Shown in pieces: positions 16,135 through 47,990 of a stretch of DNA of 64,000 bases. A program made the position numbers and the translations under genes. Under the pieces are notes generated by a model that was given only the letters and a program-made list of their open reading frames with translations, had not been told where the DNA came from and did not search any database. The DNA lies in the NCBI GenBank assembly GCA_965178125.1, contig OZ237740.1, positions 1,240,001 through 1,304,000 on the forward strand, written 5' to 3'. The first letter of the stretch is position 1. The number at the start of each line of letters is the position of its first letter. This DNA comes from Bilabrum cf. latius (Eukaryota).

Positions 16135-16361
16135 TTGGAGCCAACGGGATTGGTCGGACTGGCGTACGAAAACATAGATACTAACTGACAAAAGCATACT
16201 TTGATTTAGAATATTCGTTTGGATAGCCGATGAGATCATGCTGTCGCATCATGCAGAGTGCCCCTCAGGCTAGCTGTGGTCACGCGGTCAAGGACTGTGT
16301 ATATTATTCTCCCTCTCATGTTGACGCTAGATTGTTTGTTACTTTGATCCCACGTATAAGT

Positions 16362-18579: not shown

Positions 18580-21500
18580 TTAGCCCGGCGGCGAGGGCGG
18601 AGGGACCATTGAAAGGTCGACAGAGCCCCTCCGTCCCAACGCATCCCTCGACCCACCGCTGTCCTCTGGCGGGGGCTCAATGTCGGCTGAATCCACCGAG
18701 TCGTGATCATTGTCATCGTGCTACGCCGAGCCTTGGGATGTCGATGACAGGCCGCCGCGCCCCCTTCCCGTGCCTCCCACCTAGGCCCCTTTGCTGCTAG
18801 GTCCGGCGTCCACGGCCTCGGTCGTCTTGGACTCCGGTGCGGCCGTCTCAGAAGCTAGATATCGCCTACCAGGGCCACCCCAGCTGCCAGCTTCTTCGGT
18901 GGCATCTTCCTCGTCCTCTACGATTTGGTCTGCCAGCCCTGCAATGGCAGCCTCCAGACTCGGAGACTGCCTCTGCCTGGAGCTGCTGGTGGCACCCGCC
19001 GCTCCTGGAATGCCAGATTCAGCTGCGTGCCCTGCCAGTGGCGTGCCCTCGCCGAAGAGGCGGCTTCCGTACCTCGACAGAGACTTGCCAAAGTCGGCTT
19101 GTTTCCTCGGCGAGGTTCCCGGCTTGACCACGACCGCGCGCACCCTCCCGATGGGTCGCATCTCATCGCGCTCTGCCTTGTCCTGGAGGGCCTGCCGCAT
19201 GCGCAGGACTGGAAATGACACAGTTCGTACCGCACTCCTGAACTTTGCCTTGATCTGCTCGCGCTTTGCCTGCTGAGCCGCCCGTTGCTCGGGAGTCTCC
19301 GCCCTGTCTTTCCTCTGCGCCGCTTCAGCCTCGTCCTCTCCTGTCTGCGTCCCGGTAGCTCGCATCTCCACCGGCTTCGGGGCGTGCTGCGCCTGAGAGG
19401 CCGCGATAGATGATGAACACGAGGCGAGCAGCGCCCTAGCACCAGCTCTAGGGTCGGGAAGGACAGATCGGATCACAACCGCAGTTGAGCACCTGGCGCC
19501 GGCTGGTAAGATGCCTTGCGCACTCACTCCGACTGACCGTGTGGCCTTTACGACGCTTGGTACTGCTACTGGTGCAAGCCACCCAGCTGTTCCACACTGT
19601 CCCAGCACGTTTCGAGGAGCGGGCAACACGCCGTGGGCATTGAGCCCGGTCTGCACCTCGAACGTCGCCGACGATCTGATAGCGCTGGCATTGACGCTGA
19701 GCAATGCTTTCTATGGCTCAACCGACCAATTTCGTCGCTTAATCGAATTTGACAAAGACTCAACAGGTGGTACACATTGAGGGAGCATCGGTGGTGACGT
19801 TGCAGGTAGACTTACGCGGGCTGGGCTGCCCGATGGCCCTGACCCGGTTGGAGGCACGACTCCAGCTCCGGCACCCCACCCGACCGTGTCAAATACGTCG
19901 GATCGCACTGGGATGCTCTGCCCAAGCAGACCAGTGCCTGCGTTGAGTCGGCCTACCAGCATGTGGGCTTTGGGATGGAACCCAGCCGAAAGCGGTGGCA
20001 AATGTCGATGGCCGGGCGCATGAAACCCGAGCGAGGGAAGACTGGAGAAGGCGGTGCCCCGTCGCGTGTCTAGACGCACCCCAAGTTTTGCAGAGTGCTT
20101 TACGCCTATGTCGTTCCAAGGACCACGCGTTGAGTGCGCCGGTAGGGTTGCACTCGAATGAACCTGGCCTTCGTCGCGGGACGCCAAGCGCGACCTGGAG
20201 CTGGCTATCCCTGCAGCTGTTGGCTTGCCACCAGGACGGGAGTCATGCCCTGTCTTATCCTAGATCCTTCTCAAGTGCGCCTCAAGGGCTTGGCGGTGCA
20301 GTGGACTGCCATCCGCAGACGTGCTTATTTTCGTGCCGTCGCGCGAACCCGCGAACGTGTCGATTGCAGAGACTGCAGCCTGGCTAATGGGAGACCCAGG
20401 CACTGGGGCAGCTGCTGACTCAGGTGCAGGAGCGGGCGCGACCTAATGCTCCTCCGAAGCGTCGTCCTGAAGCGGCGGGATCGAAGACACAGAGTCGGAG
20501 CAATCCTCGGGTGGTGCAGGTTCTGCAGCGAGTGGAAGCTCTGGTGTGGCGACGGACTCGGCGCCAGCAGTTGCCGCGACAATCATGATGCGCTCGGGCG
20601 TAGCAGAGCCCGGGTCCTCCTGCATGACAGTCTCGCTATCCAACGAAGAATCCAGCTTGTCTTCCACCGATTCGGTATCTAAAATCTCAGTAGCGCTGCG
20701 CATTCGAAAGTCGACGTCGGCAGTCGGCGCAGCAACAGATTCAGGAGGTGCTACTGTGGACGCCGCGCCATCTGAATACAGCCTACCTCGAAGTGCCTAT
20801 AACCTTGAGCCTGCTTTTGTGGGCGAATCAAGCGGAGATGCGGTCAATGAATTCGTGGAAGTACTCTTCTTCTTCACGGTCTTCGCGGCCGGCTTGCTCT
20901 CATCCACTGCTGCCGTGCCCGCTGCTGCCGTGCCCGCTTTGCTGGTGGTCTTCTTCTTCACGGTCTTCGCGGCCGGCTTGCTCTCATCCGCTGCTGCAGT
21001 GCCCGCTGCTGCCGTGCCCGCTTTGCTGGTGGTCTTCTTCTTCACGGTCTTCGCGGCCGGCTTGCTCTCATCCACTGCTGCCGTGCCCGCTGCTGCCGTG
21101 CCCGCTTTGCTGGTGGTCTTCTTCTTCACGGTCTTCGCGGCCGGCTTGCTCTCATCCGCTGCTGCCGTGCCCGCTGCTGCCGTGCCCGCTTTGCTGGTGG
21201 TCTTCTTCTTCACGGTCTTCGCGGCCGGCTTGCCCTCATCCACTGCCGCCGTGCCCGCTGCTGCCGTGCCCGCTTTGCTGGTGGTCTTCTTCTTCACGGT
21301 CTTCGCGGCCGGCTTGCTCTCATCCACTGCTGCCGTGCCCGCTGCTGCCGTGCCCGCTTTGCTGGTGGTCTTCTTCTTCACGGTCTTCGCGGCCGGCTTG
21401 CCCTCATCCACTGCTGCCGTGCCCGCTGCTGCCGTGCCCGCTTTGCTGGTGGTCTTCTTCTTCACGGTCTTCGCGGCCGGCTTGCTCTCATCCACTGCTG

Positions 21501-22935
21501 CCGTGCCCGCTGCTGCCGTGCCCGCTTTGCTGGTGGTCTTCTTCTTCACGGTCTTCGCGGCCGGCTTGCTCTCATCCGCTGCTGCCGTGCCCGCTGCTGC
21601 CGTGCCCGCTTTGCTGGTGGTCTTCTTCTTCACGGTCTTCGCGGCCGGCTTGCCCTCATCCGCTGCTGCCGTGCCCGCTGCTGCCGTGCCCGCTGCTGCC
21701 GTGCCCGCTTTGCTGGTGGTCTTCTTCTTCACGGTCTTCGCGGCCGGCTTGCCCTCATCCACTGCTGCCGTGCCCGCTGCTGCCGTGCCCGCTTTGCTGG
21801 TGGTCTTCTTCTTCACGGTCTTCGCGGCCGGCTTGCTCTCATCCACTGCTGCCGTGCCCGCTGCTGCCGTGCCCGCTGCTGCCGTGCCCGCTGCTGCCGT
21901 GCCCGCTGTGCTGGTGGTCTTCTTCTTCACGGTCTTCGCGGCCGGCTTGCCCTCATCCGCTGCTGCCGTGCCCGCTGCTGCCGTGCCCGCTTTGCTGGTG
22001 GTCTTCTTCTTCACGGTCTTCGCGGCCGGCTTGCTCTCATCCACTGCTGCCGTGCCCGCTGCTGCCGTGCCCGCTGCTGCCGTGCCCGCTTTGCTGGTGG
22101 TCTTCTTCTTCACGGTCTTCGCGGCCGGCTTGCTCTCATCCGCTGCTGCCGTGCCCGCTGCTGCCGTGCCCGCTTTGCTGGTGGTCTTCTTCTTCACGGT
22201 CTTCGCGGCCGGCTTGCTCTCATCCACTGCTGCCGTGCCCGCTGCTGCCGTGCCCGCTTTGCTGGTGGTCTTCTTCTTCACGGTCTTCGCGGCCGGCTTG
22301 CCCTCATCCACTGCTGCCGTGCCCGCTGCTGCCGTGCCCGCTTTGCTGGTGGTCTTCTTCTTCACGGTCTTCGCGGCCGGCTTGCTCTCATCCACTGCTG
22401 CCGTGCCCGCTGCTGCCGTGCCCGCTTTGCTGGTGGTCTTCTTCTTCACGGTCTTCGCGGCCGGCTTGCTCTCATCCGCTGCTGCCGTGCCCGCTGCTGC
22501 CGTGCCCGCTTTGCTGGTGGTCTTCTTCTTCACGGTCTTCGCGGCCGGCTTGCCCTCATCCGCTGCTGCCGTGCCCGCTGCTGCCGTGCCCGCTGCTGCC
22601 GTGCCCGCTTTGCTGGTGGTCTTCTTCTTCACGGTCTTCGCGGCCGGCTTGCCCTCATCCACTGCTGCCGTGCCCGCTGCTGCCGTGCCCGCTGCTGCCG
22701 TGCCCGCTTTGCTGGTGGTCTTCTTCTTCACGGTCTTCGCGGCCGGCTTGCTCTCATCCACTGCTGCCGTGCCCGCTGCTGCCGTGCCCGCTTTGCTGGT
22801 GGTCTTCTTCTTCACGGTCTTTGCGGCCACTTTGGCTGAGTCACTAGTTGATTTTGCATCATCGGGGGTTTTGACTTTCTTCAAGGTAGCCTTTTTTGTC
22901 GATTTCTTCAACGCAACTCCGAACGGACTCTACAT
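18580..22935 (-). CDS. Uncharacterised about 1450-aa low-complexity protein with N-terminal Lys/Ala/Thr-rich (histone-H1-tail-like) repeats
   Basis: Minus-strand ORFs 20797..22911, 20443..20703, 19711..20187 and 18781..19704 share one frame broken only by TAG. Proposed start ATG 22935 (M-[TAG]-SPFGVALKK). First non-TAG stop is TAA at 18580-18582, after ...MVPPPSPPG. Confidence 0.75.
20866..22827 (-). repeat. Coding tandem repeat, 84-nt core unit x about 22-23, with a variable number of 15-nt subunits: KPAAKTVKKKTTSK(AGTAA)2-4(V/A)DE(S/G)
   Basis: The plus-strand unit ttcttcttcacggtcttcgcggccggcttgc(t/c)ctcatcc(a/g)ctgctgccgtgcccgctgctgccgtgcccgctttgctggtggtc recurs throughout. Confidence 0.95.
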
Positions 22936-23279
22936 GCTGCACCCACAAGTTGAGATCAAAGTTTGTGGCCAGCTAGAACTCCGTACTATACACGAAATCA
23001 CTTTAACTAAGTGGAATTGACTATTGTTGTGTTCCTGGATGCAAAAATTTGTGTGGAAGGCTCGCAAATCGGAAACGATTGGTCGTGCAATGCATCCAGT
23101 TGACTGCTCACGCACGAGGCTAAGTATAGAATTTTTCGAGCAACTGGCGCATATTATCGAACTAAATTTAAATTGGGTCGATCAATCGTCAAGGGGCCGG
23201 ACACATTGTTGTGAGATGAATCTTCTGGACATGATGATGGAGGTCGCAGGCGGTCGCAAATATGCGCTGGCAACCTGCA

Positions 23280-26200
23280 TCAATTCCACGACAAGACATC
23301 GTCGATCAGGCGCTACGTCGCGAGCTGTTCATTAAGGAGAGCAGCGCGCTCGTCCGCAACTGCTGCTCTCGACTTGCCATCTGCCTCGGCATCCTAGATC
23401 GCCTGCTTCCGCTTTGCCGACTCCACCACTTCCGCATCATACCTCGCCGCCGCTATGCGAGACAGCTGCGAAGCCTTCACCCCCGATGAAACCATACGAC
23501 GCATTGTGTACCGACGACTGGTCGAATGATCCTTGGCTGGAGCTGCAGACACCTGCTGCGAGCTGCCAGGCCGCTCAACCCCTCTTCCAGCTCGATCCAA
23601 CTCGAGTACATCTCGCGTGCCACTTCCACTACCTTGCATTTGCTCCTCGAGTTTGCGAAGCCGGTCCACACCCGGTGGAGGGCTGTCAATGGTGACGTCT
23701 GCCTGGTCCGCCAGCTTGCTTTCGGTGGCGGCTTGAGCGAGAAGCAGCTGCACGCGAGCCATCTGCCACTTGGGGTCCTTGGGCTTGGCAGGCCCGGGCA
23801 TCAGCACGGGCTCCAAAGACACAGATGTTACCGTGGACCCTGGGGAGTCATAAGCACCTGTAATCCGTTGCCCTCTACTGCCACGGGCAGACCGAGCTGC
23901 CATGGAGTAGGCCTACTTGGTGGAGGCTACCGAGCCTTCAACTTCAACCGATGACCCCGTCGCGGCCGGGTCCTCCTCGCGCGTGTCGTTTGTGTGCGCA
24001 TGGCTCGCAGCAGCAGCAGCAGCAGCAGCAGCAGTATGGGCGAATTCCCTAGCGCGGGCAGACTGTCTCACCAGCATTTCAGCGGCGTGGGGCACCGGAA
24101 CATGCAGTGAGCCTGGCTCCAACGAGATCCCGGAGCTCGCCTCAAGGCCGCCCATGCTCGGTACGGCACCAGCATTAGACGGTGACTGTGGCTGGCGATT
24201 TTTAATAGGCTCTCTGGCACCGCGCCTACTTGTTCTCTTTGGCTACAGCGCCGCGGCGCGAATGCTCCGCGCCATGCTGGAAGCCGTGGCTCTGTCGATA
24301 CCTGCCGCAGCCACCATGCTTGAAGCCAACGAGTGCTCGGGTCCCGTCTCATATTTCTCAACGGAGGCGTTTCCAAGGTAGCCCTCATTGCTTAGCCGTG
24401 GCCGGGTAGCGCCTGGGCCGCCAAGTTTCTGCAGCTGTTGCTGCTGACGGTTCACTTGTCCTGAAGTCGGCGAGCCCTGGGCGTCCTGCACGCCGAATTG
24501 TGCCATCGGATGCGCCGATGCCGGAGCCTTTCTTGATGCCTTCAACTCGGCCTGGACCTATTTCGCGAGAAGCTTGGCCGCTGCAGCTGCCGGGACCCTT
24601 TTGGCCGCCGCGCGGGCCCTTGAGTTAGACAAGCTGCTCGCTTCTTGCAGAGCCCCACCGGCGCTCGTACCGCCCGCTGTCTGCTGCTCCATTGCCTTTC
24701 CTACTAGATGCTCAAGCGGGTAGGACGGCGGAGGGGAGGTGGGCCCCTCAAGAACTGCCTGTCGTAACCACTACCAAAGAGGATCCGCCAAGGTGCGACC
24801 ATTCTTGCGTTGACCCAGCAATACCGCTGGCCGAGTTTTGCCTGCCAATAATTCGTCATCATCTTCGGAATCCGAACTTTCGATGTCGTCCTCCTTGACG
24901 TGCCTGGATTCTTCTACAACCGCAGCGGCCCGCTTCTGGGCAATGTCATGCACGCGCTGCGCAGCGGGGCCTATGATTGAGGCCAGAGCTGGATGCTCTG
25001 TGATGAGCCTGTCCGCGTACTTCTGTAGCTTGGACGATATCCGACGAACGGCTTCAATTGCAAACGTGATCCGCATGTCTCGCTGGAGCTGCTCCTGTGA
25101 CGGAATTGCGCTGTCCTGAGCCTCGGGCTCAGGAGATGGCGTTTGTTCTGGCTCCCTGTCCACCTGGCTGTGCATCGTGTCATTGAGCTCATCGCAAGTG
25201 CCATCGTCACGCTGCTTGCTTGCATCCCTTTGGTTGCTCTCTTGCAACGATTCTCTAACTGCTGCACCATTCTCCGGCGCTTGGGTGCGGGAAGGCTCCG
25301 GTGGCGGGCGGTGAGGCGGTTCGGGGGCCCGGTGCGAGTGAACAGCCCCAGAACTCGTGCTGGAGCCAGAGCCTGATCCCGGCGATGATCCGCATGGACT
25401 TGAAGCCTGCTTTTCATTGCTTATCAGGACTGAGGTACTTGGTAGAACGTGAACGGACGTGGCACCGCTGGGCCCCTGTTCTGACAATACCGGCCGGCCC
25501 ACTGGTTCGGTCGTATCCGACAGCATGTCGAACGAGGCAGGCGGCACTCTAGGCTTTGGTGTTGATGGCTTGGGCTGCACAGCGGCACCTGCAGATGGAG
25601 ATGGCTCAAAGGACCACTCCCACGCTGAAGCCCCCCCACGTCCCCCTTTAGTCGCTGTGCCGCGCTCCGTTGACCTTGGCGCTGGCTGTAGTACTGCCAA
25701 CGGCTCCACCGCTGCAGATGCGCTAACCACCGAGCCAGATTCTTCGAGCTGAACTCGGGGCTTTGCGGTTAATTTGACCTCGATTGGTTGGACGACAACC
25801 GATACAACCCCAGCATGCTCTTGAGCCTAACCAATTGCTGGTCTCCTAGCTGCCTTGTCACAAGCATCCCGCTCCACTGCAGGTGGTACGATCGCAGGCT
25901 CTGAGGAGCTGGTCTAGAAATCGAGCTGCACAGGAAATCGTTGCCGAGACGGCGATTCCAAACTGGTTGTGCCAACGCCTGGCTGGGTTTCCAATGACCT
26001 CTCGCTGGGCTTGCTTGCAGTTTGCTGTAGGACTGAGGGGATGCGGCTGAAACTCGAGGCATGCAGCAGACCAGAAGACTCCAGCTCTTGGGCAGCACGC
26101 TTTACCTACGAAATCGCCGGTTCCACCGCCACTGATCTGCCAGTAACATCTGCTTGCAGCTGTCTTGGCTTGCCAGCAGGCTTCTGCGCGGGCCGCAGTG

Positions 26201-29200
26201 GCCTGACTGTCGGTCTCTTGGACTGGTGAGCAGGCGATGGCAGCGCCGAGCCGCTTGGAGATGGCACGCGCGTCTATGACATTCGACGAAAAGATTGAAG
26301 CTTAATGAGGCCCTTAGGGCCTGATGCCTCATTTCTAGTCGGAGTCTAGTCCTTCGTGTCGCGATTTCGCTTCTCAGGCGGCATCGTCATCCGGCGCAAT
26401 GACGGGAACATGGTAGCTGAGAGCTGCCCTCTCCTAACGCTCGCATTAGGATGACCAGGTCCCAAACCCTTGCTTGCCGCTGCCCTTTTGACCTCAAGTG
26501 GCATCCGATGCGTAGGCTGTGAGAGCTGCGCGGAGTCCGTGACAACTTGTACGTCGTCCTAGCTACCTAGCGAATCTGCATCAGACTCACCGCTGGGTGC
26601 CTGCTGGCGATGTCGAACCCCCTACCTGCCGACCATAGCATCCATCTTCATCGACATGCGTTTCAGAGACGGCAGCATTTGTGGCATTCTTCTGGCAAAA
26701 CTCTTGGCCTACGTAGTGTTCAGCAAACCCGATTCGCTGGGACTATCAAGCGGGCGGAGCAACTTTTGCTGAAGATCATTGCGGACAGGGTCATCCCGGG
26801 CTCCGATCTGCTCTTCGGAACGTACCTGCTGCTCCCTCTTTTGCTTTGCTCTCCACTGTTGCAGCATGGCCTTACCGCCGCCTCCAAATTTCGGTTTGCG
26901 AGTCTTGCTCGAGGCCACCCGACCCACGTTTGGCGTTTGTGCAGTCGGCTCCCTCGCTGAGAACGTCTTGCGTAGATGCTTTGGCTAGACTGCAAGCTCC
27001 TTCGGGCCTGCGATTCGAGGCAGGTCACGAATGCCGTCCTCAATGCGATCCTTGAACTCTTCTTGGTCGTCGGTGTCATCCCCGTCCTCCTCCACTGCCT
27101 CCGCCAGCGCGTGCAGCCCGCCCAGCGCACCCATGTGCACGCTGTGCCGGCCGCGCACCTTCACTGCAGCAGCGTCCTCCCCGAGTCCGGACGATGACCC
27201 TGGCTTCAGCGACCCGCGACGCAGCTGAGCATGCGCCGACACACGCGACCGCAGCTTCTGCCGCGCGTCTCCGCCCAGGCCCATGCTCTGCTGTCCGGGC
27301 TTACGCGTAGACCCGCCAGTCGGAGTGCCAGCCACGCGGGCCGAGAATGTCTTCTTCAATGTTGGCTTGCCATCAGCACCACCCACACGCCCACGCCGCA
27401 TCAACCGACCCACCCACACACCAGCCTCCTCACCATCGGACTCCCCCTCATCCCCGTCCTCCTCCACTGCCTCCGCCAGCGCGTGCAGCCCGCCCAGCGC
27501 ACCCATGTGCACGCTGTGCCGGCCGCGCACCTTCACTGCAGCAGCGTCCTCCCCGAGTCCGGACGATGACCCTGGCTTCAGCGACCCGCGACGCAGCTGA
27601 GCATGCGCCGACACACGCGACCGCAGCTTCTGCCGCGCGTCTCCGCCCAGGCCCATGCTCTGCTGTCCGGGCTTACGCGTAGACCCGCCAGTCGGAGTGC
27701 CAGCCACGCGGGCCGAGAATGTCTTCTTCAATGTTGGCTTGCCATCAGCACCACCCACACGCCCACGCCGCATCAACCGACCCACCCACACACCAGCCTC
27801 CTCACCATCGGACTCCCCCTCATCCCCGTCCTCCTCCACTGCCTCCGCCAGCGCGTGCAGCCCGCCCAGCGCACCCATGTGCACGCTGTGCCGGCCGCGC
27901 ACCTTCACTGCAGCAGCGTCCTCCCCGAGTCCGGACGATGACCCTGGCTTCAGCGACCCGCGACGCAGCTGAGCATGCGCCGACACACGCGACCGCAGCT
28001 TCTGCCGCGCGTCTCCGCCCAGGCCCATGCTCTGCTGTCCGGGCTTACGCGTAGACCCGCCAGTCGGAGTGCCAGCCACGCGGGCCGAGAATGTCTTCTT
28101 CAATGTTGGCTTGCCATCAGCACCACCCACACGCCCACGCCGCATCGACCGACCCACCCACACACCAGCCTCCTCACCATCGGACTCCCCCTCATCCCCG
28201 TCCTCCTCCACTGCCTCCGCCAGCGCGTGCAGCCCGCCCAGCGCACCCATGTGCACGCTGTGCCGGCCGCGCACCTTCACTGCAGCAGCGTCCTCCCCGA
28301 GTCCGGACGATGACCCTGGCTTCAGCGACCCGCGACGCAGCTGAGCATGCGCCGACACACGCGACCGCAGCTTCTGCCGCGCGTCTCCGCCCAGGCCCAT
28401 GCTCTGCTGTCCGGGCTTACGCGTAGACCCGCCAGTCGGAGTGCCAGCCACGCGGGCCGAGAATGTCTTCTTCAATGTTGGCTTGCCATCAGCACCACCC
28501 ACACGCCCACGCCGCATCAACCGACCCACCCACACACCAGCCTCCTCACCATCGGACTCCCCCTCATCCCCGTCCTCCTCCACTGCCTCCGCCAGCGCGT
28601 GCAGCCCGCCCAGCGCACCCATGTGCACGCTGTGCCGGCCGCGCACCTTCACTGCAGCAGCGTCCTCCCCGAGTCCGGACGATGACCCTGGCTTCAGCGA
28701 CCCGCGACGCAGCTGAGCATGCGCCGACACACGCGACCGCAGCTTCTGCCGCGCGTCTCCGCCCAGGCCCATGCTCTGCTGTCCGGGCTTACGCGTAGAC
28801 CCGCCAGTCGGAGTGCCAGCCACGCGGGCCGAGAATGTCTTCTTCAATGTTGGCTTGCCATCAGCACCACCCACACGCCCACGCCGCATCGACCGACCCA
28901 CCCACACACCAGCCTCCTCACCATCGGACTCCCCCTCATCCCCGTCCTCCTCCACTGCCTCCGCCAGCGCGTGCAGCCCGCCCAGCGCACCCATGTGCAC
29001 GCTGTGCCGGCCGCGCACCTTCACTGCAGCAGCGTCCTCCCCGAGTCCGGACGATGACCCTGGCTTCAGCGACCCGCGACGCAGCTGAGCATGCGCCGAC
29101 ACACGCGACCGCAGCTTCTGCCGCGCGTCTCCGCCCAGGCCCATGCTCTGCTGTCCGGGCTTACGCGTAGACCCGCCAGTCGGAGTGCCAGCCACGCGGG

Positions 29201-32200
29201 CCGAGAATGTCTTCTTCAATGTAGGCTTAACAGGTTTCATCTAACTATGCTCCTGAGCGGACTTTACAATAGGCTGAGGCTCCTCGGCCATGGAGAATCT
29301 GATCTTTCTCTCCCCTGGCGATTTCGCGGCCTGACTGCCTTGCAGATCTTTCAGACTTTTCCCGGGTGGTATTGGCGCTTGCTTGCGCGGAGGAGGCCGT
29401 GGCACTGACGGGGGCCCAGGTGGAATCGACTCCGCCCTCCCCGGTTGGACATCTGTATCGCTGTCCGCATTCAAGCTCTTCTCGCTAGCCCATCGCTGCA
29501 GGGGCGTCAATGGCGCCACAATACTTCTTCTACTCCGCACGAGGCCATTGATACCAGCAAGGGACTTTGATCTGGGCTTCTATTTCGCAGAGCTTCCCTC
29601 CGCAATGTGCACCGACCCAGGCTTCATGGACGCGCGACGACCAACGCTGACAGACGGACGCACGCTCGTGCTGCTGCTCGACCCCGCGCCCCCGGGCTTC
29701 GATGACGGAGACGACCCGCCCACGGGAAGCACAGGCATGTCCACCGACCCAGGCTTCATGGACGCGCGACGACCAACGCTGACAGACGGACGCACGCTCG
29801 TGCTGCTGCTCGACCCCGCGCCCCCGGGCTTCGATGACGGAGACGACCCGCCCACGGGAAGCACAGGCATGTCCACCGACCCAGGCTTCATGGACGCGCG
29901 ACGACCAACGCTGACAGACGGACGCACGCTCGTGCTGCTGCTCGACCCCGCGCCCCCGGGCTTCGATGACGGAGACGACCCGCCCACGGGAAGCACAGGC
30001 ATGTCCACCGACCCAGGCTTCATGGACGCGCGACGACCAACGCTGACAGACGGACGCACGCTCGTGCTGCTGCTCGACCCCGCGCCCCCGGGCTTCGATG
30101 ACAGAGACGACCCGCCCACGGGAAGCACAGGCATGTCCACCGACCCAGGCTTCATGGACGCGCGACGACCAACGCTGACAGACGGACGCACGCTCGTGCT
30201 GCTGCTCGACCCCGCGCCCCCGGGCTTCGATGACAGAGACGACCCGCCCACGGGAAGCACAGGCATGTCCACCGACCCAGGCTTCATGGACGCGCGACGA
30301 CCAACGCTGACAGACGGACGCACGCTCGTGCTGCTGCTCGACCCCGCGCCCCCGGGCTTCGATGACGGAGACGACCCGCCCACGGGAAGCACAGGCATGT
30401 CCACCGACCCAGGCTTCATGGACGCGCGACGACCAACGCTGACAGACGGACGCACGCTCGTGCTGCTGCTCGACCCCGCGCCCCCGGGCTTCGATGACGG
30501 AGACGACCCGCCCACGGGAAGCACAGGCATGTCCACCGACCCAGGCTTCATGGACACGAGTACCGCACTCGACACAGTTTGACTTTGCCTTTTGGGTGGG
30601 TTCACGTGTGAGATGCTGCTTCTTGGCCTTACCATGCTCTTGCGCCGTTGGGGTGGATGTGCATTTGATGTTGGTATCGCCGCGTTTGGCTTTGCAGAAG
30701 TTGGATCACATGCCTAATCAGGCTGAATTTCAGCAGAATGGTCTGCTTCAGATTCCTCGTGATACTGGGCGACTGGCCTTTGTGCTTCCTCCTGGGCGAC
30801 TGGCCCTGGTGCTGGTTCGAGATCAGACACTGCAGGGCCGTTGTCCTGGACAGCATCGTGCTGCACCGTGCTATCCCGAGACTGGTCTACGCCGATAGAA
30901 GGAGTCCCCGACGGCGCAGCGCTTCCATTTTGAGTATCTCGCTGTACTGCGTGTGCCTGCTTGTGGGTCTTTCTGCGATCCTTCTTGGGAGAGTGACCCG
31001 CTCCCCTCACACCGACTCCTTCGTCGATCAGGCGGAGCTTCGTGTTCGATCGGCCGAGCTGCCTGTCCTTCTCTTGCACCCGCCCGCGGTTCTCTGCCAC
31101 CACGAGTCGCTGCCAGAGAGCGTCGTGCTCGTCCGCAGCGGCCTCCTGGTCCTTCCTCTCCTCGTCGTCGGATATAGCAGAGAACGGCCGCTTCGCCAGA
31201 GGGGACGCGGGGGGCTGGGCATCGGGTGGAGCATCCAGGTCGAGGGGCTACCCCAACAGCGCGGCTGCTTCCATGAGGACCTGTCGAGCGCTAGTGGGCC
31301 CGGAGCTGTCACGTCCCCGCGACTCAGCCTCAGCCTCAGCCTCGCTCGCTTTTAGAGCCACCTCTCTCTCTATCTCGGCCTCGATCGATCCCGCGTCGCT
31401 CACGGCGCCACCATCGTCATTTGGGTTCGAATCCGCGCTGGCTGATCCATCAGAGTCCATGGCCAGCTGGTCCCGAGAAGAGACAGATGGCTCCGACCTG
31501 CCCTGCAGACGGTCCATGAGGCGCTGTGCCTCCAGCTGCGCCAGCCGGCGAGTCACTTCCTCCCCACTACCAGTGCCCGCCGGGGCACTAGATCCCACGG
31601 AGGACCCGGCCAGTCGACGCGACGCGTGCCTCTAGAACTTGGCCCGGGCTCGGCCCAGAGCCACGGCAACTGCGTCTGCACGTGGCTCGGCATCGCTCTG
31701 CACGGACCCGGGGCCCCGGCGCCGACCGTGTTTGCTCCTGCCCGGCAACGCCGCCCGGTCTCCGGGTAAAGATGCAGAGTCGTGATGTGGCCCGTCGCCC
31801 AAGTGTGCTGCTGGCTCTGGCTGGCTGGCAAGCACGGCAATGCCTAGCATTGTAGCGGAGGACTGCCTTGCCAGCCCAGCGTGTGCGGCATCGACTGCAG
31901 GGGACGCCTCCACGACCACATCGGCCTCTTTCCACACCAAACGCTTCTTCTTTTTCTTCTTTCTGCGTTTTCTTTTCTTCTCTGCGCCAGGCTATGAACC
32001 GCCCGTCGGATTGCCAACTGCCTCTGTGCCAGCAACCGATGAAGGGGCTTGCGTAGACGCTACACCAGCAGCCGACACGGATTGAGGGACATTCTTTGTC
32101 AAAATTCTACTTGATGACCTTCTCGAGCTTGACCTGCTTTTCTTGGAGCTTCGACTTGACCGTGAAGTTCTGCTGGTAGCTGACGTGCGGCGGCGACTCG

Positions 32201-32327
32201 TTCGCCGGCTCTCCCCGTGACCACTGAGCCCATCCTAGCTTGGTCCAGCGATGACTTTGTTTTCTTTGTCTTCTGTTGCGCTTACAGAAGCAGAATCTGC
32301 TGTCAAGATGCGATCAAGCCTGTCCAT
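23280..32327 (-). CDS. Uncharacterised about 3000-aa, largely disordered Ser/Gly/Arg/Ala-rich protein with two internal tandem arrays
   Basis: About 12 minus-strand ORF fragments (23394..23903 up to 32235..32465) share one frame, and the gaps I read contain only TAG. Stop is TGA 23280-23282 after LIDDVLSWN. Start taken at ATG 32327 (MDRLDRILTADS), uncertain. Basic NLS-like tract EKKRKRRKKKKKKR near 31940-31985. Confidence 0.75.
27077..29222 (-). repeat. Coding tandem repeat, 372-nt (124-aa) unit x about 5.8, nearly identical copies
   Basis: Identical spurious ORFs recur at 27231, 27603, 27975, 28347, 28719 and 29091 (period 372). Copies differ at essentially one site (atcaacc/atcgacc). Confidence 0.95.
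29610..30556 (-). repeat. Coding tandem repeat, 132-nt (44-aa) unit x about 7.2: SMKPGSVDMPVLPVGGSS(P/L)SSKPGGAGSSSSTSVRPSVSVGRRA
   Basis: accgacccaggcttcatggac recurs at 29611, 29743, 29875, 30007, 30139, 30271, 30403 and 30535. Confidence 0.95.
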
Positions 32328-32839
32328 AGCATGAGTCTGTTGCTGCTTCGGCTCGGGTGCCTCTTGCCAGGCTTGCGCCAAATTCCTATGCAACCTAAAC
32401 GAACCTGCAACAATAGTAGACAGAATCGATGTGGTACTGGAGGAAGAATTGCGCGGTTGGTACAAAGCACTGCGTCAATTCGATGCAAGGGATCGACTGA
32501 CTTGTTCGTCTTGCTCTCGCTCGAAGAAATGACCCCGTTCGTTGTAGGCTCGCATCCTCTGGAACCCCTACAACATCGCGGCTCGATGACATCGCCCGGA
32601 GCAATGCAGCCACTTCAATCTGTGCTTGCTTCCCGAATCAAGTCGCCGCGCAATTGAACGACTTCTTTGCGGAACCTCCCAGCTGGTCGCGAGAATCGGT
32701 CGCGTGATGCAAGATCCAAGCAATAACTTGATTGCATTCATGCGACGGATCTAAGTCAGGACAGGAGCATCTCACTCTACATACCACTTTCCCGAAAGCA
32801 ACCAGCTAGAGCGTGTTTCTGACACTCGCTGCAGGCTTG

Positions 32840-34489
32840 ATGCCTGAACCGAGGCAGTGCTAGCCAGAAGTAGACGGCAATGATCCCGAGAGCTAGCTTT
32901 ACCTACCAGAGGGCTGTTTTCAACCGGCAGTACCCTTTTGCTGCTGCGCTGCTGAGCCGCTTGGACTAACGTGGGGAATAGTGTCATTCGTGCTGGTTGA
33001 TTTCCTCACACTGCTTGCATTAGGTGTTACTAGCACGTGGCTTGCCATTGTGAGCTGCGAAAGCGAGAGAATTGGCGCAGACAGCTGGGTCGGAGCGGTT
33101 CCCGGCTGGCTGGACTGGATCCAGATCGGAGGCGGATGCCAGCTGAGCCGAAACGCTTTGGATGCTAGTCTGGGATGGCTTCTCCCATTGCTGGTGTTTT
33201 GCCTCGTGATCTCGGCAGGTATTCTTCTTTTGTGGATGGTATGCACGAGAGTAATGCGCCCCGACGCTCTCGCACGCCCATCTGTTGCATATGATATGCT
33301 GGCGTTGATGACCTCGCGCACCGAAGCAACATCATCAGCGCGAACACTGCCAAGTACAAATTGCTTTCGGAGCCCGGCTTGGGCCTTCGGGGCGAGTACC
33401 CCCTTTATCACCATGACCTACCTTGCAATAGAGGTCGCAGGCGCTGTGGCGTTGGTCGCAGTAGGGCCTATCGCACTCGCTATCAACCTTGTCTGGACGT
33501 GGGTTGTAGTGCCTGTGTTGGAGGTGCCTACCATTGCCTGGGCATATCCAGCGACAGACCTGTCAAGAATGGCTGAAGCTTTACCGGCCTTCTTTCAGCC
33601 GTTCGAGCAAGCAAAGAGCGCAGCACACCAGATGGATAACGCGACGGACCTTGCGACGGCGTTGGCGGTGGGCACGGGCACGGCAGCGGGACGTGCCTAT
33701 GCGGTATTTTCTGGTCTATCCATGGCGCACAGTGTGATATCGCACGCGGCAGGCGGCACCCGCTTTCGAGGTGACGTGACGCGAGCGGGGAGGATGGTGA
33801 GGCCGGCCATCGTCGCGCCTGAACCGATGGGTGGGGGGGATGACCATCGGGTGGCTGGGGTTGCCGGATCCAGAATTCCGGCCGCTGCTAGTGGCGGTAC
33901 TTTAGCAGCGACAGAGGAGCGCAACACACCGGCAGGACACGGCGCGTCCGTGCCGAATGGGCCAGGTGGGCAGGGACAGCACACCGCCGGGCTGGCAACA
34001 GGGAGTGCTGCGGTGCCTTCGGCTGCATCTGAATAGCGACCTTTTACGGCCGGCAGCAGTTTAGAGATAGATCGGGGCAGCAGCGCAGCGCATCAAGGCG
34101 GTCGAAATTCGCTACCTCGAGGGGGAATCAGCTCTGCTCGGGCTTTCGAGGTGCTGTTGTGGTGGAGTTGTTGGCGACTGCTGAACTCGGTAGTGGCAGA
34201 GGTGCCGCTACTAGTGCTGGACCTCTACCTCCTGAGTGTGGGAGATGTGCCCTTGGCCAAGTGGGACTCCAACCGGACGACCGTGGTGTTTATTGGATTT
34301 GTGATGAAACTGATTGCCTTTGGCTTCAGCTGTGTGACGATTGGGTGGGACACGAGACAGCTGTGCATGCTCGCTGCGATCCAGGAGCAGTTGCCGCAGA
34401 CACATCAACCGAGTCAGCAGTGGCAAAGCCAGCAGCATCATGACCAGCACTAGCACCACCAGCCTCAAGATCAATAGAAGCAGAATTGA
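32840..34489 (+). CDS. Uncharacterised multi-pass membrane protein (about 549 aa) with Gln/His-rich C-terminus
   Basis: ATG 32840 lies downstream of an in-frame TGA. ORFs 32981..34036 and 34151..34453 share its frame, joined through TAG. Several hydrophobic segments (VSFVLVDFLTLLALGV, LGWLLPLLVFCLVISAGILLLWMV, VVFIGFVMKLIAFGF). Tail QQWQSQQHHDQH[TAG]HHQPQDQ[TAG]KQN, then TGA 34487-34489. Confidence 0.72.
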
Positions 34490-34889
34490 TATAGCAGTGT
34501 GGCGGAGCAGACTGACTGGATCTGGGGCGGCGGAAACGGTACGTAATCTCTCGACTACTACCGCCGGTGCCTCGATTCGGCTGACCTGGGCGATGACTTG
34601 GGGGCATCGAAGGTTTGGGGTGTTGGACCATGATGTGCTGCTCTCCAGAATCTTGATGAGTGTGGAGCTGTGACCTCGCTTTCAAGATGCCTTTCGCTTT
34701 TCGGAGTATCTCCGCGAAGGCATGCAGTCGAGAAGGTCGGAGTGTCTCGACTCATTGCGGCCTCCTCGAGACGCGGAGGCACGCTGCATGGGACTGGTTT
34801 GCGGCCCGGTTTCACTTTTTATGCGGCTGCCTGAATCTATTGCTGTGCTATGCACGGCGGGCCGCCAAGTCAGGTTTTCGGTAATTGGC

Positions 34890-34908
34890 GGGGGGGGGGG
34901 GGGGGGGG
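34890..34908 (+). repeat. Poly-G homopolymer (19 G), intergenic
   Basis: Direct read; lies between two convergent genes. Confidence 0.9.
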
Positions 34909-35417
34909 ACGTTGGGCGAAGTGTGCGCCGCGGACCCAGGTCGGTCGGAAGAACAGGTCGCATGGGACAGGGCGCAGTGAAGAAACGTTCCAGAGGGTTT
35001 GGAAGCACATAATCTGTATATATAGCAACACAACAATCGCTTATGGTTGAACACAGCATTAATACGAATAGCACACCTTCAGCACATGGCCACGCTCAGC
35101 AATAAATTCATTCACCACCTGAAACGTCATCAGGTACTGATGCCAGCGTATACAACGAAGTTTACCAATCTCCGCCCCTATCCTGAACACAGAGAGGGTA
35201 TGCGCGTCATCGCAAAGCAATCCGTGACATTGGTCGCACCTCCCAGTTGCAACCGCCAGCCGAACTGTCGAGGCATTGCAGCGCTCCCACTCTGATATCA
35301 ACACCGAACCCCTTTCGGTGTTAGGATTAAGGCACGAACCCAGGCAGCAGCTCACTTACGCAACGGGCTCCCACAATTGAGCTAGTACAAAACAGTAGCA
35401 TAAATCACTTGCTCTTC

Positions 35418-37805
35418 TCACTGCTTGCCCGCCCGCACCCGCACCGCGTCTCGGAAGCGCACCAGGGCGAGCTGCCTCTTGAAGTTGCAGCCCATCCCGT
35501 ACTTGGCCCACTCCAGGTGCTTGTCCGTGGAGCGATCCAGCAGCAGCCGCTTCAGCTTGTTCGTACTGCAGCTGCCGAGTGCCTCCGTGACAGCCCAGGA
35601 CGGGGCCTAGCTTGGTCCCGTCGTAGCCTGCTCGACGAGGCACACTTCCGCCTTGCTCACATCATCATAGGTGGGGTGCAGCCGAGCTCCCCGCAGCAGC
35701 AGATAGGCAGCGAGGTAGAGCTTGCCGGTGGCTGCAGCGAATGCAAGCGGGGTCATGCACCGTCGGCCCAAGATGCCTTCGGCGCAGAAACTGTGGCCAT
35801 CGCTGTAATTGGGGCTCTTGTGCAAGAAATAGACGCAAGACTCGTCCTAGTTGGTGGCAAAACCATCGACGGGCATGCCTTCTCTCACAAGACGATCCAC
35901 GATGGAGATCATCCGCACCTGAGAGTCGCGGTCCATGGCGCAGACTGCCACAAACCCGTGCAGCAATGCGATCGCGCTGGACAATGCTCGGCCATCTCGT
36001 TCGTGCAAGACACCCTTTGCAGTGTTAAAAAGACCGAACTTCCGCCGCAACCCTGGCACAACGTCCAGAACATCGGCGAGAAAGCACGTTTCTGGCATGC
36101 GCTTGGACTTGCGCTCGCCTTGCTTCTCGTCGAAGATCGCGTCCGAGAGCAGGCACTCGGCCAGAGCCACGGCACCCTGGGTCAGATTCATCGTGAACGC
36201 GCGATTGAAGCTGGCATCAACCCTAACCAGCTCCTGCATGAGCAGCTTGTACCGGTTGTGCACCGCGATTGGCTTGGCCCTGTCTGCTGCGATCATGTCT
36301 CGGCGCAGGAGGTGCACCACAACGGGCTCCGGCAGCTAGAAAGGTTCCTACTTGCAGACAATGCGCGGCTTCTCGAGGGCAAGAAGTTGAAGGCACATGT
36401 CTCTTACGTGCGCGGAGGCACCGGGCAGCTCCGAGATGATCCGCATACCCTTTTCAATGCCCCTAGCCTCGTGCGCGGCAATCAGCAAGCAGTGGCCCAT
36501 CGTCCGGCCCGCCTCCCTGCTGATCTGCTCCACGTGGTCGTGCATGCACTGGCAGCCATCGCACCACAGCTTCTCTCCGTGGGGAACGTCCCACCTTTGG
36601 CTCTCCATCAGATGCAGCGCCATCTCCGAGGCACCGTCCACCACGCCTGCACCGAGAGCCAGCTCAGCCAACACCTCGCCAGACGCTCGACCTCCCGCCA
36701 GGGCCCTGGCGACCGTTTCAAAGCCTAGCAGGAACTTGACCATGCCGACTTGCTTGCGATCCCTCGCAATGTCCAGGGGCCCGCCGTGGCCGCCGTCGCG
36801 AGTGGGCGTTCCCGGATCTATCCCGAGCTCTTCCACCGCGAACTTGGCCACGTCAAGCTGGCCAAAGCTGCAAGCTTCATCCAGAACTGTCCAGTGTCGC
36901 TTGCAAGGACGGACACCGCACTTGTAGAGCGCTTTAAGTCCTTCGATGCGGCCAGAGCGCGCTGCCAGCATCTCGATGGACCACCAGTCCGTGTCCCACA
37001 CGCGCTGCTCCAGGAAGTGCATCCCGAACCCAGCGCCGTGGTCGATGGTGTACTCAAGCCGAAGCAGCTGACCAGGAGGGTATCGACTGGCAGGCATGTA
37101 TCCAAACGTGCTGTGCTTGTCGGCTGCCACCGCAGCAACAAGCGTTTCCGCGCGGGGCAAGCCCAGCCCTAGCCCTAGTACCACGGGGTGAGGAGGCGGG
37201 CTCGGGGCGTCCACTCCGAGCTACATCTTCAAGGCGAAGCAGTCCATGGCGCGCTTGAACAATGGTGTCATGTGGCCCCCGAGTGCGCGGGCCAGCGTGT
37301 CGATGCAAGCAGCGAGCCGCTTGTGGGCAGCTGCCATCGTAATCATGACCCGGCCAGTGCCGGCGTGCCGTGCGATTCGCTTCCCCGCCGCAGCCCCCAT
37401 CGCGGCATCGACGCTGCTGCCACGGGACTTAGCTATCCTTATGGCTGTTACACTTGTTATAAGTGGAACAATTCTGTAGTGTTTATAGTAGTACGCTGGG
37501 GTGGTTGATTCGACAACCTAGAACGCCTGCTGGGCTTGGTCCTTGCACCAGCCCGTTCCAATCTTGTCTTCGCGACGCTTCAGCGGCCTGCAAGCCTTGT
37601 CAACAAAAGCTGAGAACATGCCTTGCATTACCGACATCCCCATGCAAACGACGCTGGCAACGTGGGCGACGTCCTTGACCTCCTCCAACGCTTTCTGCAT
37701 TTCTGTTGGACGCAGCGCCCGCGCAGCCCGCCACACTCGACAATACTGCTCCTATTCAACTGAAGGATTGGATGGATTCATCCAAAACTCTGCCGGAGTT
37801 GACAT
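35418..37805 (-). CDS. Ankyrin-repeat protein, paralog A (about 795 aa)
   Basis: One frame broken only by TAG from ATG 37805 (MSTPAEFWMNP) to TGA 35418-35420. Ankyrin-like units WTVLDEACSFGQLDVAKFAVEELG, GPLDIARDRKQVGMVKFLL, MTPLAFAAATGKLYLAAYLLLRGA. Colinear similarity to 38307..41312 along its whole length. Confidence 0.8.
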
Positions 37806-38306
37806 GGTGGGAAGGAGTCTGGTATTGCAGGCGCTGGAGCACTCCACAAATCGTCCACCACCGCGTCCTCCCAGAACCGGCAACACCAATCAATGTTGTT
37901 ACAGCTTATCGTAATTGTGGTGTGGCAGACACTGCCAATTGCCGGTGCTGAAAAACTGCAGGCAAGTAGAAGTGAAGTGCAACTGAGTCCGGCGGCGGGA
38001 GAGAGCTCCTTTCTTCCAAGATTCGACTTGTAGTCAACGCTGCACTGAGGCAAACACGTACTTCTAGTAGAGCGACTACAAAGCAGTGATGAGGATACAA
38101 GCTAGCTATTGTAAGAAATGAACCTCAGCTGTTGTAGACCGAGATGTTCCGGCGGATAGGATTGGATAGGAATCTAGCGGCGGTTCCGCTACAAAACGCC
38201 ACTGTTTAGGGGGGCACTCTTCATCTGTCGAAAGGCATATTATTGGCAATTATGTTCATTAATGCGTCCCACATTCGTTTTTGTCTATCGGCACCACGTT
38301 TCGTGC

Positions 38307-41300
38307 TTACATAATGTCTATGCTCGCGGCATCTTCCATGGCCATCTGCTCCTGCTCCTCCTTCATGCGCAGGCGCTGCTGCAGCTTGCGGACATAGTCC
38401 GCAAGCTGTGCCTGTTCCTGTCGCAAGGATGCAGCGTGAGCGCGCGCGGCCGCCCGGTGTCGTGCTCTTGCATGCGCCGTTTGCTCTGCCCTCACGAGCA
38501 CCGACAGGACCTCCTGGGCGCTCTCAGACCTGCCGCCGAATCGAACGGCCCACTACAGTGCAGTGCATCCATCGCTGCAGCGATGCAAAGGATCCTGTCC
38601 CAGCTGCAGCAATGACCGCACAATCGCGGGGCTGCCCCCCACCGCGGCCGCCATCAGGAGGGTGCAGTCGCTGGCCCTGTGCAGCCCACCCCACTGGCAA
38701 CCGCCGCTGCTGCCCGCGCCCGACGACGGGCCCGAGCCGGTACTAAACCCGAGCCCTCCCACACCGCCTTGCACGTGCAGCGCCCGATAGCCAGCCAGCG
38801 CCACATGGCCCTTCCCGCTCTTGCTCTATTTCTTGCTGTCGCTCCCGGGCCGCACAGCTGCCTCGAAGCCCGCTTCGTCTCCCTGCAGGGCACACACCCA
38901 GGCGTCCTGCCCCTGCGCGCGCACCCGCACCGCGTCTCGGAAGCGCACCAGGGCGAGCTGCCTCTTGAAGTTGCAGCCCATCCCGTACTTGGCCCACTCC
39001 AGGTGCTTGTCCGTGGAGCGATCCAGCAGCAGCCGCTTCAGCTTGCTCGTGCTGCAGCTGCTCACAGCGTGCAGGACCCTCTCCTTGGGCCTCTTCACAG
39101 GACCAGCAACTTTGCTAAGCAGCCGGTCCAGCTCTTCCTTAGTCACGTCGTCGTAGGTGGGGTGCAGCCGAGCTCCCCGCAGCAGCAGGTAGGCAGCGAG
39201 GTAGAGCTTGCCGGTGGCTGCAGCGAATGCAAGCGGGGTCATGCACGGTCGGCCTAAAATAGGTTCAGCGCAGCGGTTATCCTGTATGAACAATGACATG
39301 AGCGACGTATGAGCTAATGGATGCACGAGCTTTGCGGGCGCCGCTTGCCCCCCGACTGGCATGCCAAGCCGAGCCAGGTTGTCAACGATCGATATCGTTC
39401 GCACCTAGGAGGTGCGGTCCATGGGACAGGTGACAATAAATGATTGGACCAGTGCGACGGCGTTCAGTCGGACACTGTCTTCATCGCTGACGCTGCGAGG
39501 CGGCACTCCCGCAGGGAGTCGGGGCAGGCACAGCAGCTTCCGCAGGCTTGGGATCAACTGCACTGATCTGCTCAGTGGAGTGCTTGGAACGCGCTTGCTT
39601 AATGAGACCCCCTCTTTTTCTAGCGAACCGGCTCGCATCAGTGCTTGAAAGTGACTGATCTCTGCGCTCAGCCAATGCGTGAGCTGCGCCTCGCTGCACT
39701 GGTAATCGAGCCTGCCGAGCTCTCGAAGAAGACTGTCCTACTATTGCTGAGTAGCCGCTACAGCTGCCTTTTCTAACGGAATGTAGTCGTGCCGCAGCAA
39801 AAAGATCAGCACCGCGGCTGGCAACGTGTGGTAACCACCCATCAATTTTGTTTTGGCTGGTCGCGAAGCACCGAGGGCCCCGAGAGCATCGTGCAAGTGC
39901 TGGGAGATGCCCGGCTTGGTCAGCATCAGCTCTATTTCGGCATCAAAATCGTCCGTCTGAGACGCGGCGATTAGCAGCCCTTCGCCGACTGAACGCCCAG
40001 CGGGGTGCGAGACTGCGTCTGGGTCGTCGTGCAAGACACCGCAATTGGTGCACCAGTATTCGCCTGCCTCTCCGAATGGGATGTCCCACTGCGGGTCGGA
40101 CTCCCGCAGCAGCTTCGAGACAATGTTCCCAGTGTTCTCATCAGATGGCACGCACCCCATCATCTGAGAAAGGAGCCAGCCCTGCCTCCCGGTGGTTGCA
40201 ATGTGATGCAGCGCCTCTCCTCCTCTCGCTCTCAGCATGCAGTCCGCCGCGCTGGCCATGCCGTTCTTCGCCATGGCGGCATGCAGGGCCGACTGATGCT
40301 CCTTGTGCCCCGTGCACACCATCGAGTCCATCCAGTGCTCCTCCATCAGGTACTCGACGACCTTGACCTGGCCCGAGACACCAGCCTGGTGAAGAGCCGT
40401 CCAGCCCCACTCCCGCGGCCCTGCGTCGTGATCGTACAGGGCGCGCAAGCCATCGAGGCAGCCGCTCCCAGCCGCTAGGATCTCGAGAGGATTCACTCCA
40501 AGCGATTCGCTCTCATACCTGAGGAACTCGAGGCCATACCCAGACCCTGCAGCTACTTTGCGATGCATGCTTCGATCAACCAAGCCACGCGCCGCCAGTT
40601 GTGACGAGTCAGGAGGTTCGACCAGGTCAAATGAGCTTGACGTACATTCAGCTACGACATTCACAAACGTCCCTGCGTGGGGCAGGTTCAGCCCCAGGGC
40701 CACCACCACGGGGTGAGGAGGGAAGCACGGCTCGAGGGCGGCCAGAAGCGTCCCGTCTGCGTTACAATCCAATGCGTCCTTGAATAGCTGGGAGGACTTC
40801 GCACGCGAAGTCCGATTAGCACTAAGGCATACTTCTAGAATGGCCTCTATGCAAGCTTTGAATCTTTTCTCTGCTGCGGCTCTGGTTACGAAGACCCGAC
40901 CAGTCCTACCGTCTCTGACCGGACCCGCGGGGCCTCCCTTTACACTTTTCATCGTTGTTATTTCGCTCGCAAGTTTAATCTCAGGAACTATGTTGGCTTC
41001 AGCCTCTGAGCAGCAATTCATGGCAAACGCGCTCGTAATTGATGCTTTGGTCCAACCTGTTGCTTGAATCTCATCATCCGCATTGCGGGCTGCATCGTCA
41101 CAGAAAGCAGAAAACAGCGCTTGAACTATGGAAAGCTAGTGATGCACGTAAGCTACAACAGCGTCTATTTTGCAACTGGGTTGATGCAGCAACGATCGCA
41201 ACCGTTTTGGTCGAAGGGACCGCGCGGCGCGCCAGATTGACCGATACAGACCACTTTCAGAGCCACGAGTGCTACCAGGAGTAGAACCAGCACGCTAAGA

Positions 41301-41312
41301 GTTGCCTGACAT
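38307..41312 (-). CDS. Ankyrin-repeat protein, paralog B (about 1001 aa) with extra C-terminal ankyrin repeats and coiled-coil-like tail
   Basis: ATG 41312 (MSGNS[Q]RAGS...IWRAARSLRP, matching VWRAARALRP of paralog A) to TAA 38307-38309; only TAG internally. Ankyrin motifs WTALHQAGVSGQVKVVEYL, QSALHAA, MTPLAFAAATG, CTLLMAAAVGGSPAIVRSLLQLGQDP, GCTAL[Q]WAVRFG. Confidence 0.82.
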
Positions 41313-41339
41313 GAATCTTGTTCCGTTTTTTGATAGTAT

Positions 41340-47950: not shown

Positions 47951-47990
47951 TACATCCCATCACCCACCTTCGGGCCCCCACCAGAATGTT

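Follow-up and report, generated by a model that had tools for sequence, protein, structure and literature searches.

A stretch of 64,000 nucleotides (nt) of DNA from Bilabrum cf. latius (assembly GCA_965178125.1, OZ237740.1:1,240,001-1,304,000), referred to here in its full length as the window, appears to be written in a nuclear genetic code that uses UAG as a sense codon for glutamine, while UAA and UGA both serve as terminators. This is the codon assignment of NCBI table 15, the pattern that we call 'Iotanema-type' after one of the organisms discussed below. Taken together with the view that this DNA is nuclear and belongs to a compact eukaryote rich in guanine plus cytosine (GC; about 61% overall, and 0.54-0.69 in 2-kb steps), we place the probability of this reading at about 0.85. 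That UAA and UAG are decoupled had been proposed in an earlier note on the same DNA, and the proposal holds in its essentials: UAG as sense and UAA as terminator are supported by the in-frame counts of the stop-like triplets, by the placement of TAA, and by coding signal that disappears at two TAA codons. The background offered with the proposal, that most nuclear recodings change UAA and UAG together, has been overtaken. Codes in which both codons specify glutamine are indeed the commoner, but from 2017 onward the literature contains nuclear codes that reassign UAG and retain UAA as a stop (PMC5304391, PMC11687900), and decoupling is therefore not unprecedented.

TAG as a sense codon

Reading frames were compared under alternative sets of stop codons. 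With the standard code, frames of at least 300 codons amount to 50,454 nt and the longest has 850 codons. When TAG is freed, leaving TAA and TGA as stops, the total becomes 107,781 nt and the longest frame extends to 5378 codons. Freeing TAA instead, with TAG and TGA as stops, gives 55,626 nt and opens no additional reading frames, the longest still having 850 codons. With TAG as sense, the window holds 11 long open reading frames (ORFs) of 440-5377 amino acids (aa), distributed over both strands and occupying 57,546 of the 64,000 bases (90%). Their 19,171 codons include 135 TAG, and neither TAA nor TGA occurs in frame; the previous observation that coding frames are free of TAA is thereby borne out across the whole set. 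TAG is present in all 11 ORFs, where it accounts for 15% of all glutamine-type codons. Since the 11 long ORFs are open only if TAG is sense, we take TAG to be a sense codon here.

No sign was seen that TAG is also used as a context-dependent stop. TAG makes up a fraction of 0.119 of the glutamine codons within the last 50 codons of the genes, and 0.093-0.190 in the other distance bins, so it is not depleted toward gene ends. At the single ORF end of the 11 that is anchored by homology, the C-terminus of a HECT domain, the defined protein end is followed by TGA. An ambiguous code of the Condylostoma or Blastocrithidia type, in which the same codon is stop and sense, does not describe these data: TAA and TGA never occur in frame, and TAG is undepleted at the ends.

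Glutamine as the residue encoded by TAG

Five independent comparisons support glutamine as the residue that TAG specifies. The HECT ORF of the window was aligned with that of L001, a metagenome contig, over 1312 residues, with TAG in either sequence treated as an unknown residue. In this alignment 7 of 19 TAG positions face glutamine (Q), and canonical Q is kept in 40 of 91 positions. Glutamine was the best residue by 10.9 nats over the next one, and by 18.8 nats when a pair of ankyrin paralogues from the window was included; in the combined comparison the likelihood of Q lies above that of every other residue. Among the TAG codons that align with Q of L001 are those at 12388-12390 (plus strand; residue 4130 of the HECT ORF, in NSRVAL-q-LWLP) and at 13900-13902 (plus strand; residue 4634, in RPSASAAL-q-VALAP).

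The remaining comparisons concern the ankyrin-repeat genes and a retrotransposon. On the minus strand, the TAG at 38553-38555 is residue 939 of the ankyrin ORF 38307-41369 (gene 7), and the corresponding residue is Q in P0005, the protein of a relative that shares 90% identity with the end of gene 7; P0005 breaks off exactly at a CAG of the window. In the same gene, the TAG at 39405-39407 (minus strand; residue 655, in the conserved stretch MDR.S-q-VR.ISIVD) corresponds to a canonical Q in the paralogue 35418-37805. The TAG at 45624-45626 (plus strand) falls in a reverse-transcriptase motif, GTP-q-GEILSP, where it aligns with a Q of a solved R2 protein. Among other copies of this retrotransposon in the same sequencing runs, one contig carries T>C at 45624 together with G>A at 45626, which yields CAA at this position.

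The distribution of TAG within the HECT gene is uneven. Its last 743 codons, at 13906-16134, contain no TAG among 26 glutamine codons, compared with 56 among 233 elsewhere in the gene; the region of L001 that matches 13906-16134 contains 3 TAG. The absence at the HECT end may be due to chance, or TAG may be avoided in the domain that is most constrained.

Absence of TAA from reading frames

In a GC-rich genome, TAA could be a sense codon that has simply become very rare, in which case the two ORFs that appear to end at TAA would really end at TGA codons lying 5 and 17 codons farther on. TAA is the rarest of the three triplets on the plus strand of the window (154, compared with 469 TAG and 781 TGA), and among nuclear variants the assignment of both UAA and UAG to glutamine (UAR=Gln) is much the more common (PMC5304391). 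We set the absence of TAA against the use of other A-ending codons in the same genes. CAA makes up 27% of CAA plus CAG, and TTA makes up 15% of TTA plus TTG; the corresponding A-ending shares for GAA and AAA are 27% and 22%. Given 135 TAG, even the most A-averse pair, TTA/TTG (39/229), predicts 23.0 in-frame TAA, with a probability of 1e-10 of finding none. The CAA/CAG ratio predicts 50.8 (P of none, 9e-23). The two off-frames of the same coding DNA hold 54 and 62 TAA, 116 in all, and the prediction from this off-frame rate is 58 (P of none, 6e-26). As the A/G codon ratios predict 23-51 TAA and none is observed, the absence is more than GC bias. A UAR=Gln code of the NCBI table 6 type would have both codons in frame, whereas the 11 ORFs have TAG 135 times and TAA not at all.

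Because ORFs delimited by TAA cannot contain it, the same 11 frames were also recounted with TGA as the only stop, TAA not being presumed to terminate. Five in-frame TAA were found: two upstream of the first ATG, three near the end of a frame, and none in the body. The three late ones lie 5, 17 and 1 codons ahead of the closing TGA. If TAA were uniformly placed, the probability that all three post-ATG occurrences fall within the last 17 codons is 9e-7, and a Fisher test of TAA against TAG in tail and body gives p=8e-5. A rare sense codon confined in this way to the extreme ends of genes, or to positions before the start codon, is hard to reconcile with reading TAA as an amino acid, and the sequence beyond the two TAA ends, described next, adds to the difficulty. 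We regard a sense reading of TAA as improbable.

TAA at two gene ends

Nine of the 11 long ORFs end in TGA. A candidate twelfth ORF, at 16360-16884 on the plus strand (175 codons, positive coding score), would supply a tenth, in agreement with the ten TGA-ended genes of the earlier note. The other 2 of the 11 end in TAA, both on the minus strand and both where that note had located them: 18580-18582 closes ORF 18580-22935, and 38307-38309 closes ORF 38307-41369. Past the first, the frame next meets stop-like triplets at +4 codons (TAG) and +5 codons (TGA); past the second, at +16 (TAA), +17 (TGA) and +19 codons (TAA). With an in-frame TGA within 5 and 17 codons, ORF length cannot separate TAA as a stop from TAA as a rare sense codon, and other properties of the sequence on either side of TAA were used for this.

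Coding potential was scored from codon usage by a leave-one-out procedure, each gene being scored with a model trained on the other ten. At the TAA at 18580 the final 40 codons score +0.20 and the sequence past it -0.36 and -0.39; at the TAA at 38307 the values are +0.24, then -0.29 and -0.55, with GC falling from 0.58 to 0.43. In the intervals scored past the two TAA, GC is 0.43-0.50. The change in base composition is seen equally when 150 nt before and after each TAA are compared (0.66 to 0.48 at 18580; 0.63 to 0.47 at 38307), as expected from the previous remark that AT-richer sequence follows both codons. A similar drop occurs at 8 of the 9 TGA stops (downstream GC 0.47-0.57), the exception being gene 5, which shows none (0.55 to 0.59). 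Between each TAA and the TGA that follows it, stop-like triplets are crowded together, making up 3 of 6 and 3 of 18 codons, and these stretches are poor in GC and non-coding by score. The fall in both coding signal and GC at these two codons supports the conclusion that TAA marks gene ends. TGTAA is a green-algal poly(A) signal; downstream of the stops in the window, neither TGTAA nor AATAAA recurs.

A different objection is that TAA is unassigned or irrelevant, that TGA is the sole terminator, and that the two TAA ends are artefacts of an intron near the 3' end, of a pseudogene or of an assembly error. The organism does have at least one GT-AG intron, and neither TAA-ended gene has homologues that would fix its end. 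Nevertheless, the coding score of the frame holds until each TAA is reached, and the same pattern occurs in two independent genes. With regard to the assembly, positions 35731-39045 are covered by a DNA-like run with 0 differences, and no joint was reported near the 38307 end in the contig alignment, which covered 30600-50599 and so includes this end and not that at 18580. We judge an artefactual origin of the two ends to be unlikely.

Several points nonetheless weigh against the assignment that we favour, UAG as glutamine with UAA and UGA as terminators. Just two genes have a TAA end, and in both an in-frame TGA follows soon after. Because the C-termini of both proteins are lineage-specific and of low complexity, no homologue fixes either end: a search with the C-terminal piece of gene 7 retrieved P0005 only, which stops 37 residues short, and a search with the end of ORF 18580-22935 gave no match. 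This missing homology anchor is the main weakness. In the 64-kb window neither a tRNA gene nor an eRF1 gene was seen. The sample consists of one 64-kb window and one 4.4-kb relative; the aligned runs are contigs whose RNA status is a guess. The relative, L001, is weak evidence when taken by itself, since its 10 TAG would lead to an expectation of only about 2-4 TAA were TAA sense.

Related sequences

L001 is 67% identical to the window over the C-terminal 730 HECT residues and about 59% identical over the 1312 aligned residues. Its HECT frame has 10 TAG, 0 TAA and 0 TGA in 1364 codons and is closed by TGA. The TAG positions of L001 differ from those of the window, which indicates that the recoding is common to a second, clearly different organism. 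The HECT genes of two further, more distant metagenome contigs, L002 and L003, served as controls; they are 48% identical to that of the window, in the HECT domain only, have 0 TAG in 2480 and 1994 codons, respectively, and end in TAA. Both contigs are GC-rich (57-62%), with uninterrupted HECT-ligase ORFs of at least 2480 and at least 1994 codons, and are from standard-code organisms with a similar intron-poor, giant-ORF style.

The relation of L001 to the window also bears on whether a code change is needed at all. TAG and CAG differ by one transition, and for this reason we considered that the TAG codons might be corrected in RNA, for example by U-to-C editing to CAG, or that the genes are dead. 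Nothing was found in favour of either. Gene-sized contigs of run X5, a run rated 'RNA? (probably DNA)', span many TAG with 0 differences, and one such contig is without the 97-nt GT-AG intron described below. The 135 TAG are spread across all 11 ORFs, whose frames are intact and free of TGA and TAA, and L001 has the same habit at different positions. Editing or gene death without a change of code is, on these grounds, highly improbable, and the data are better accounted for by UAG as a glutamine codon.

Closer relatives of the window are also on record. Proteins in the Logan database are 90-95% identical to those of the window, two of them, P0001 and P0005, being fragmentary. Near-identical DNA occurs in runs under several organism labels, and run X11 has a copy roughly 90% alike. 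A 22-mer from the multi-copy retrotransposon had 0 matches in metagenome contigs and 0 in prokaryote genome contigs; there were likewise 0 matches to the reverse-transcriptase protein among viral contigs and 0 to the HECT end among genome contigs.

Gene content of the window

Eukaryotic ORF products are evident in the HECT domain, the ankyrin repeats and the non-LTR (long terminal repeat) retrotransposon. The first ORF (1-16134, plus strand) is open at its 5' end and encodes 5377 aa with 56 TAG and 0 TAA; at the C-terminus lies a HECT ubiquitin-ligase domain (E 7e-97), and the stop is TGA; a protein atlas likewise gave a eukaryotic HECT domain for this end. Next comes ORF 17100-18422 (plus strand; 440 aa, 2 TAG, TGA stop), which has an FGE-sulfatase domain. 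ORF 18580-22935, one of the two that end in TAA (minus strand; 1451 aa, 7 TAG), is of low complexity with 84/168-nt tandem repeats and has no match to a Pfam family. ORF 23280-32327 (minus strand; 3015 aa, 22 TAG, TGA stop) is repeat-rich, and ORF 32840-34489 (plus strand) encodes 549 aa with 5 TAG and ends in TGA. The two ankyrin-repeat proteins are encoded by the minus strand, in ORF 35418-37805 (795 aa, 7 TAG, TGA stop) and in its paralogue, gene 7 (1020 aa, 7 TAG, TAA stop). ORF 41361-47657 (plus strand; 2098 aa, 13 TAG, TGA stop) belongs to a multi-copy non-LTR retrotransposon with an RVT_1 domain, and ORF 47991-50753 (minus strand; 920 aa, 2 TAG, TGA stop) has an Acyl_transf_3 domain. 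The last two are ORF 51270-55517 (minus strand; 1415 aa, 10 TAG) and ORF 57492-63767 (plus strand; 2091 aa, 4 TAG), both with TGA stops. Apart from the ORFs with HECT, FGE-sulfatase, ankyrin, Acyl_transf_3 and RVT_1 regions, the products are repeat-rich and of low complexity, with one marginal Pfam match and otherwise no family. The window had 0 Rfam matches.

The giant ORFs contain long in-frame tandem repeats that are nearly perfect, at 5262-7241, 20865-22828, 27076-29228, 29605-30555 and 53544-53821. The repeat units measure 36, 81, 84/168, 372, 132 and 45 nt and occur in up to 28 copies, with matches of 96-99% in most arrays and 85-87% in two. A GT...AG intron of 97 nt with a pyrimidine-rich 3' end was identified at 32405-32501 (minus strand), just ahead of the start codon of gene 23280-32327 and within its 5' leader; one of the contigs of run X5 is without it. 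No other intron was seen, and none of the 11 long ORFs is interrupted. The largest gap between long ORFs, about 2 kb at 55518-57491, contains no ORF whose coding score is convincing. The start of gene 57492-63767 is overlapped, in a different frame, by ORF 56489-57601.

In runs X1 and X5 the segment 34602-35935, made up of the 3' part of ankyrin gene 35418-37805 and downstream DNA, has 10-40x the baseline depth and is therefore a member of a repeated family. Within it, 35430-35787 corresponds to 38916-39273, where gene 38307-41369 has the same segments of 146 nt and 137 nt at 98% and 91% identity; that gene continues for about 200 codons beyond the segments that it has in common with 35418-37805.

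The retrotransposon occupies 41361-47790 and combines an APE-like stretch, 'VVTGDFN', with the RVT_1 domain. Contig depth along the element climbs in run X1 to about 2880, compared with a baseline of 9-18, a rise that fits 5'-truncated copies. The 13 in-frame TAG of its ORF indicate that the element is adapted to the code of its host. Its ATG (41361) and that of the divergent ankyrin gene (41369) overlap by 9 nt.

Comparison with known genetic codes

Published work provides a plausible basis for separating the two codons. An anticodon CUA is argued to read UAG and not UAA, whereas UUA would read both (PMC5304391, PMC11687900). By analogy, and as the earlier note proposed, UAG in this organism would be decoded by a tRNA-Gln with anticodon CUA, which is unable to pair with UAA; no tRNA with a UUA anticodon would be expected; and eRF1 would have lost, or weakened, its recognition of the G in UAG while still recognising UAA and UGA. 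For such an organism, neither the standard code nor table 6 would give a correct annotation. The standard code splits its proteins into fragments, as is seen in the database proteins P0001 and P0005.

The closest counterpart is Iotanema spirale (Metamonada, Fornicata), in which Panek et al. 2017 (PMC5304391) first documented a code with UAG=Gln and with UAA and UGA as its stops. All three assignments are the same as those proposed here: UAG occupies glutamine positions, UAA and UGA are missing from the frames, and both act as terminators. A T32G change in the GTS motif of Iotanema eRF1 has been reported (PMC5304391). The two differ in stop usage, since 104 of 119 scored Iotanema genes end at UAA (PMC5304391) and only 2 of 11 ORFs do so in the window (binomial p=3e-7), and the window has a GC content of about 61%. 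On account of these differences in stop usage and GC, the window very probably derives from a different organism.

Among ciliates, UAG=Gln without reassignment of UAA is described for Hartmannula sinica and Trochilia petrani, with Protocruzia tuzeti cited as an earlier case, and these species are treated with NCBI translation table 15 (McGowan et al. 2024, PMC11687900). As in the window, UAG became glutamine independently of UAA. In those ciliates, however, 93.5-100% of homology-anchored C-termini are at UAA, and UAA is considered to have been retained since it is the preferred stop (PMC11687900). That explanation is inapplicable to the window, where TGA, not TAA, is the usual stop. UAG has also been decoupled from UAA with other amino acids, UAA being kept as a stop: as leucine in the rhizarian 'exLh' and in TARA phyllopharyngean ciliates, and as serine in Scotinosphaera (PMC11687900). 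The window differs from these in the amino acid, for which the alignments favour Q.

In UAR=Gln codes, which the literature cites for many ciliates, hexamitin diplomonads, some ulvophycean green algae, Streblomastix and Amoeboaphelidium protococcarum, a stop has likewise become glutamine, and genes for tRNA-Gln(CUA) are known from organisms with such codes (PMC5304391). UAA is a sense codon there, whereas TAA is absent from 19,171 codons here. Assemblies of the aphelid A. protococcarum have 40.5% GC (PMC10608142), compared with about 61% in the window, and on this ground that species was rejected as the source. The bacteriophage 'code 15', listed in the literature for crAss-like and Lak phages with TAG=Gln, has the same codon table; it operates in a bacterial system with RF1 and RF2, whereas the window is eukaryotic, with its HECT and ankyrin proteins, retrotransposon and GT-AG intron.

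Few nuclear codes are known to separate UAG from UAA; those described come from one fornicate, one rhizarian, one green-algal genus and a few ciliates (PMC5304391, PMC11687900). Each new case tests whether one route recurs, namely a tRNA with a CUA anticodon combined with a change of eRF1 near the GTS motif. In the literature covered, which omits most subscription journals, we came upon no GC-rich eukaryote described as having UAG=Gln only. The code of the window is not of a new kind; most likely the window represents a further lineage with a known code, because its source is GC-rich and prefers TGA stops. That the window and its relatives (the Logan proteins and L001) belong to a lineage whose UAG=Gln-only code is undescribed so far, and arose independently in a GC-rich, TGA-preferring genome, has in our estimation about an even chance of being correct. 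If so, this would be the first case of UAA kept as a stop while a minor terminator, and the decoupling would rest on decoding chemistry, through the CUA anticodon and eRF1 recognition, and not on heavy use of UAA. What distinguishes the window from the systems compared here is that UAA survives as a stop in DNA whose genes terminate mainly at TGA.

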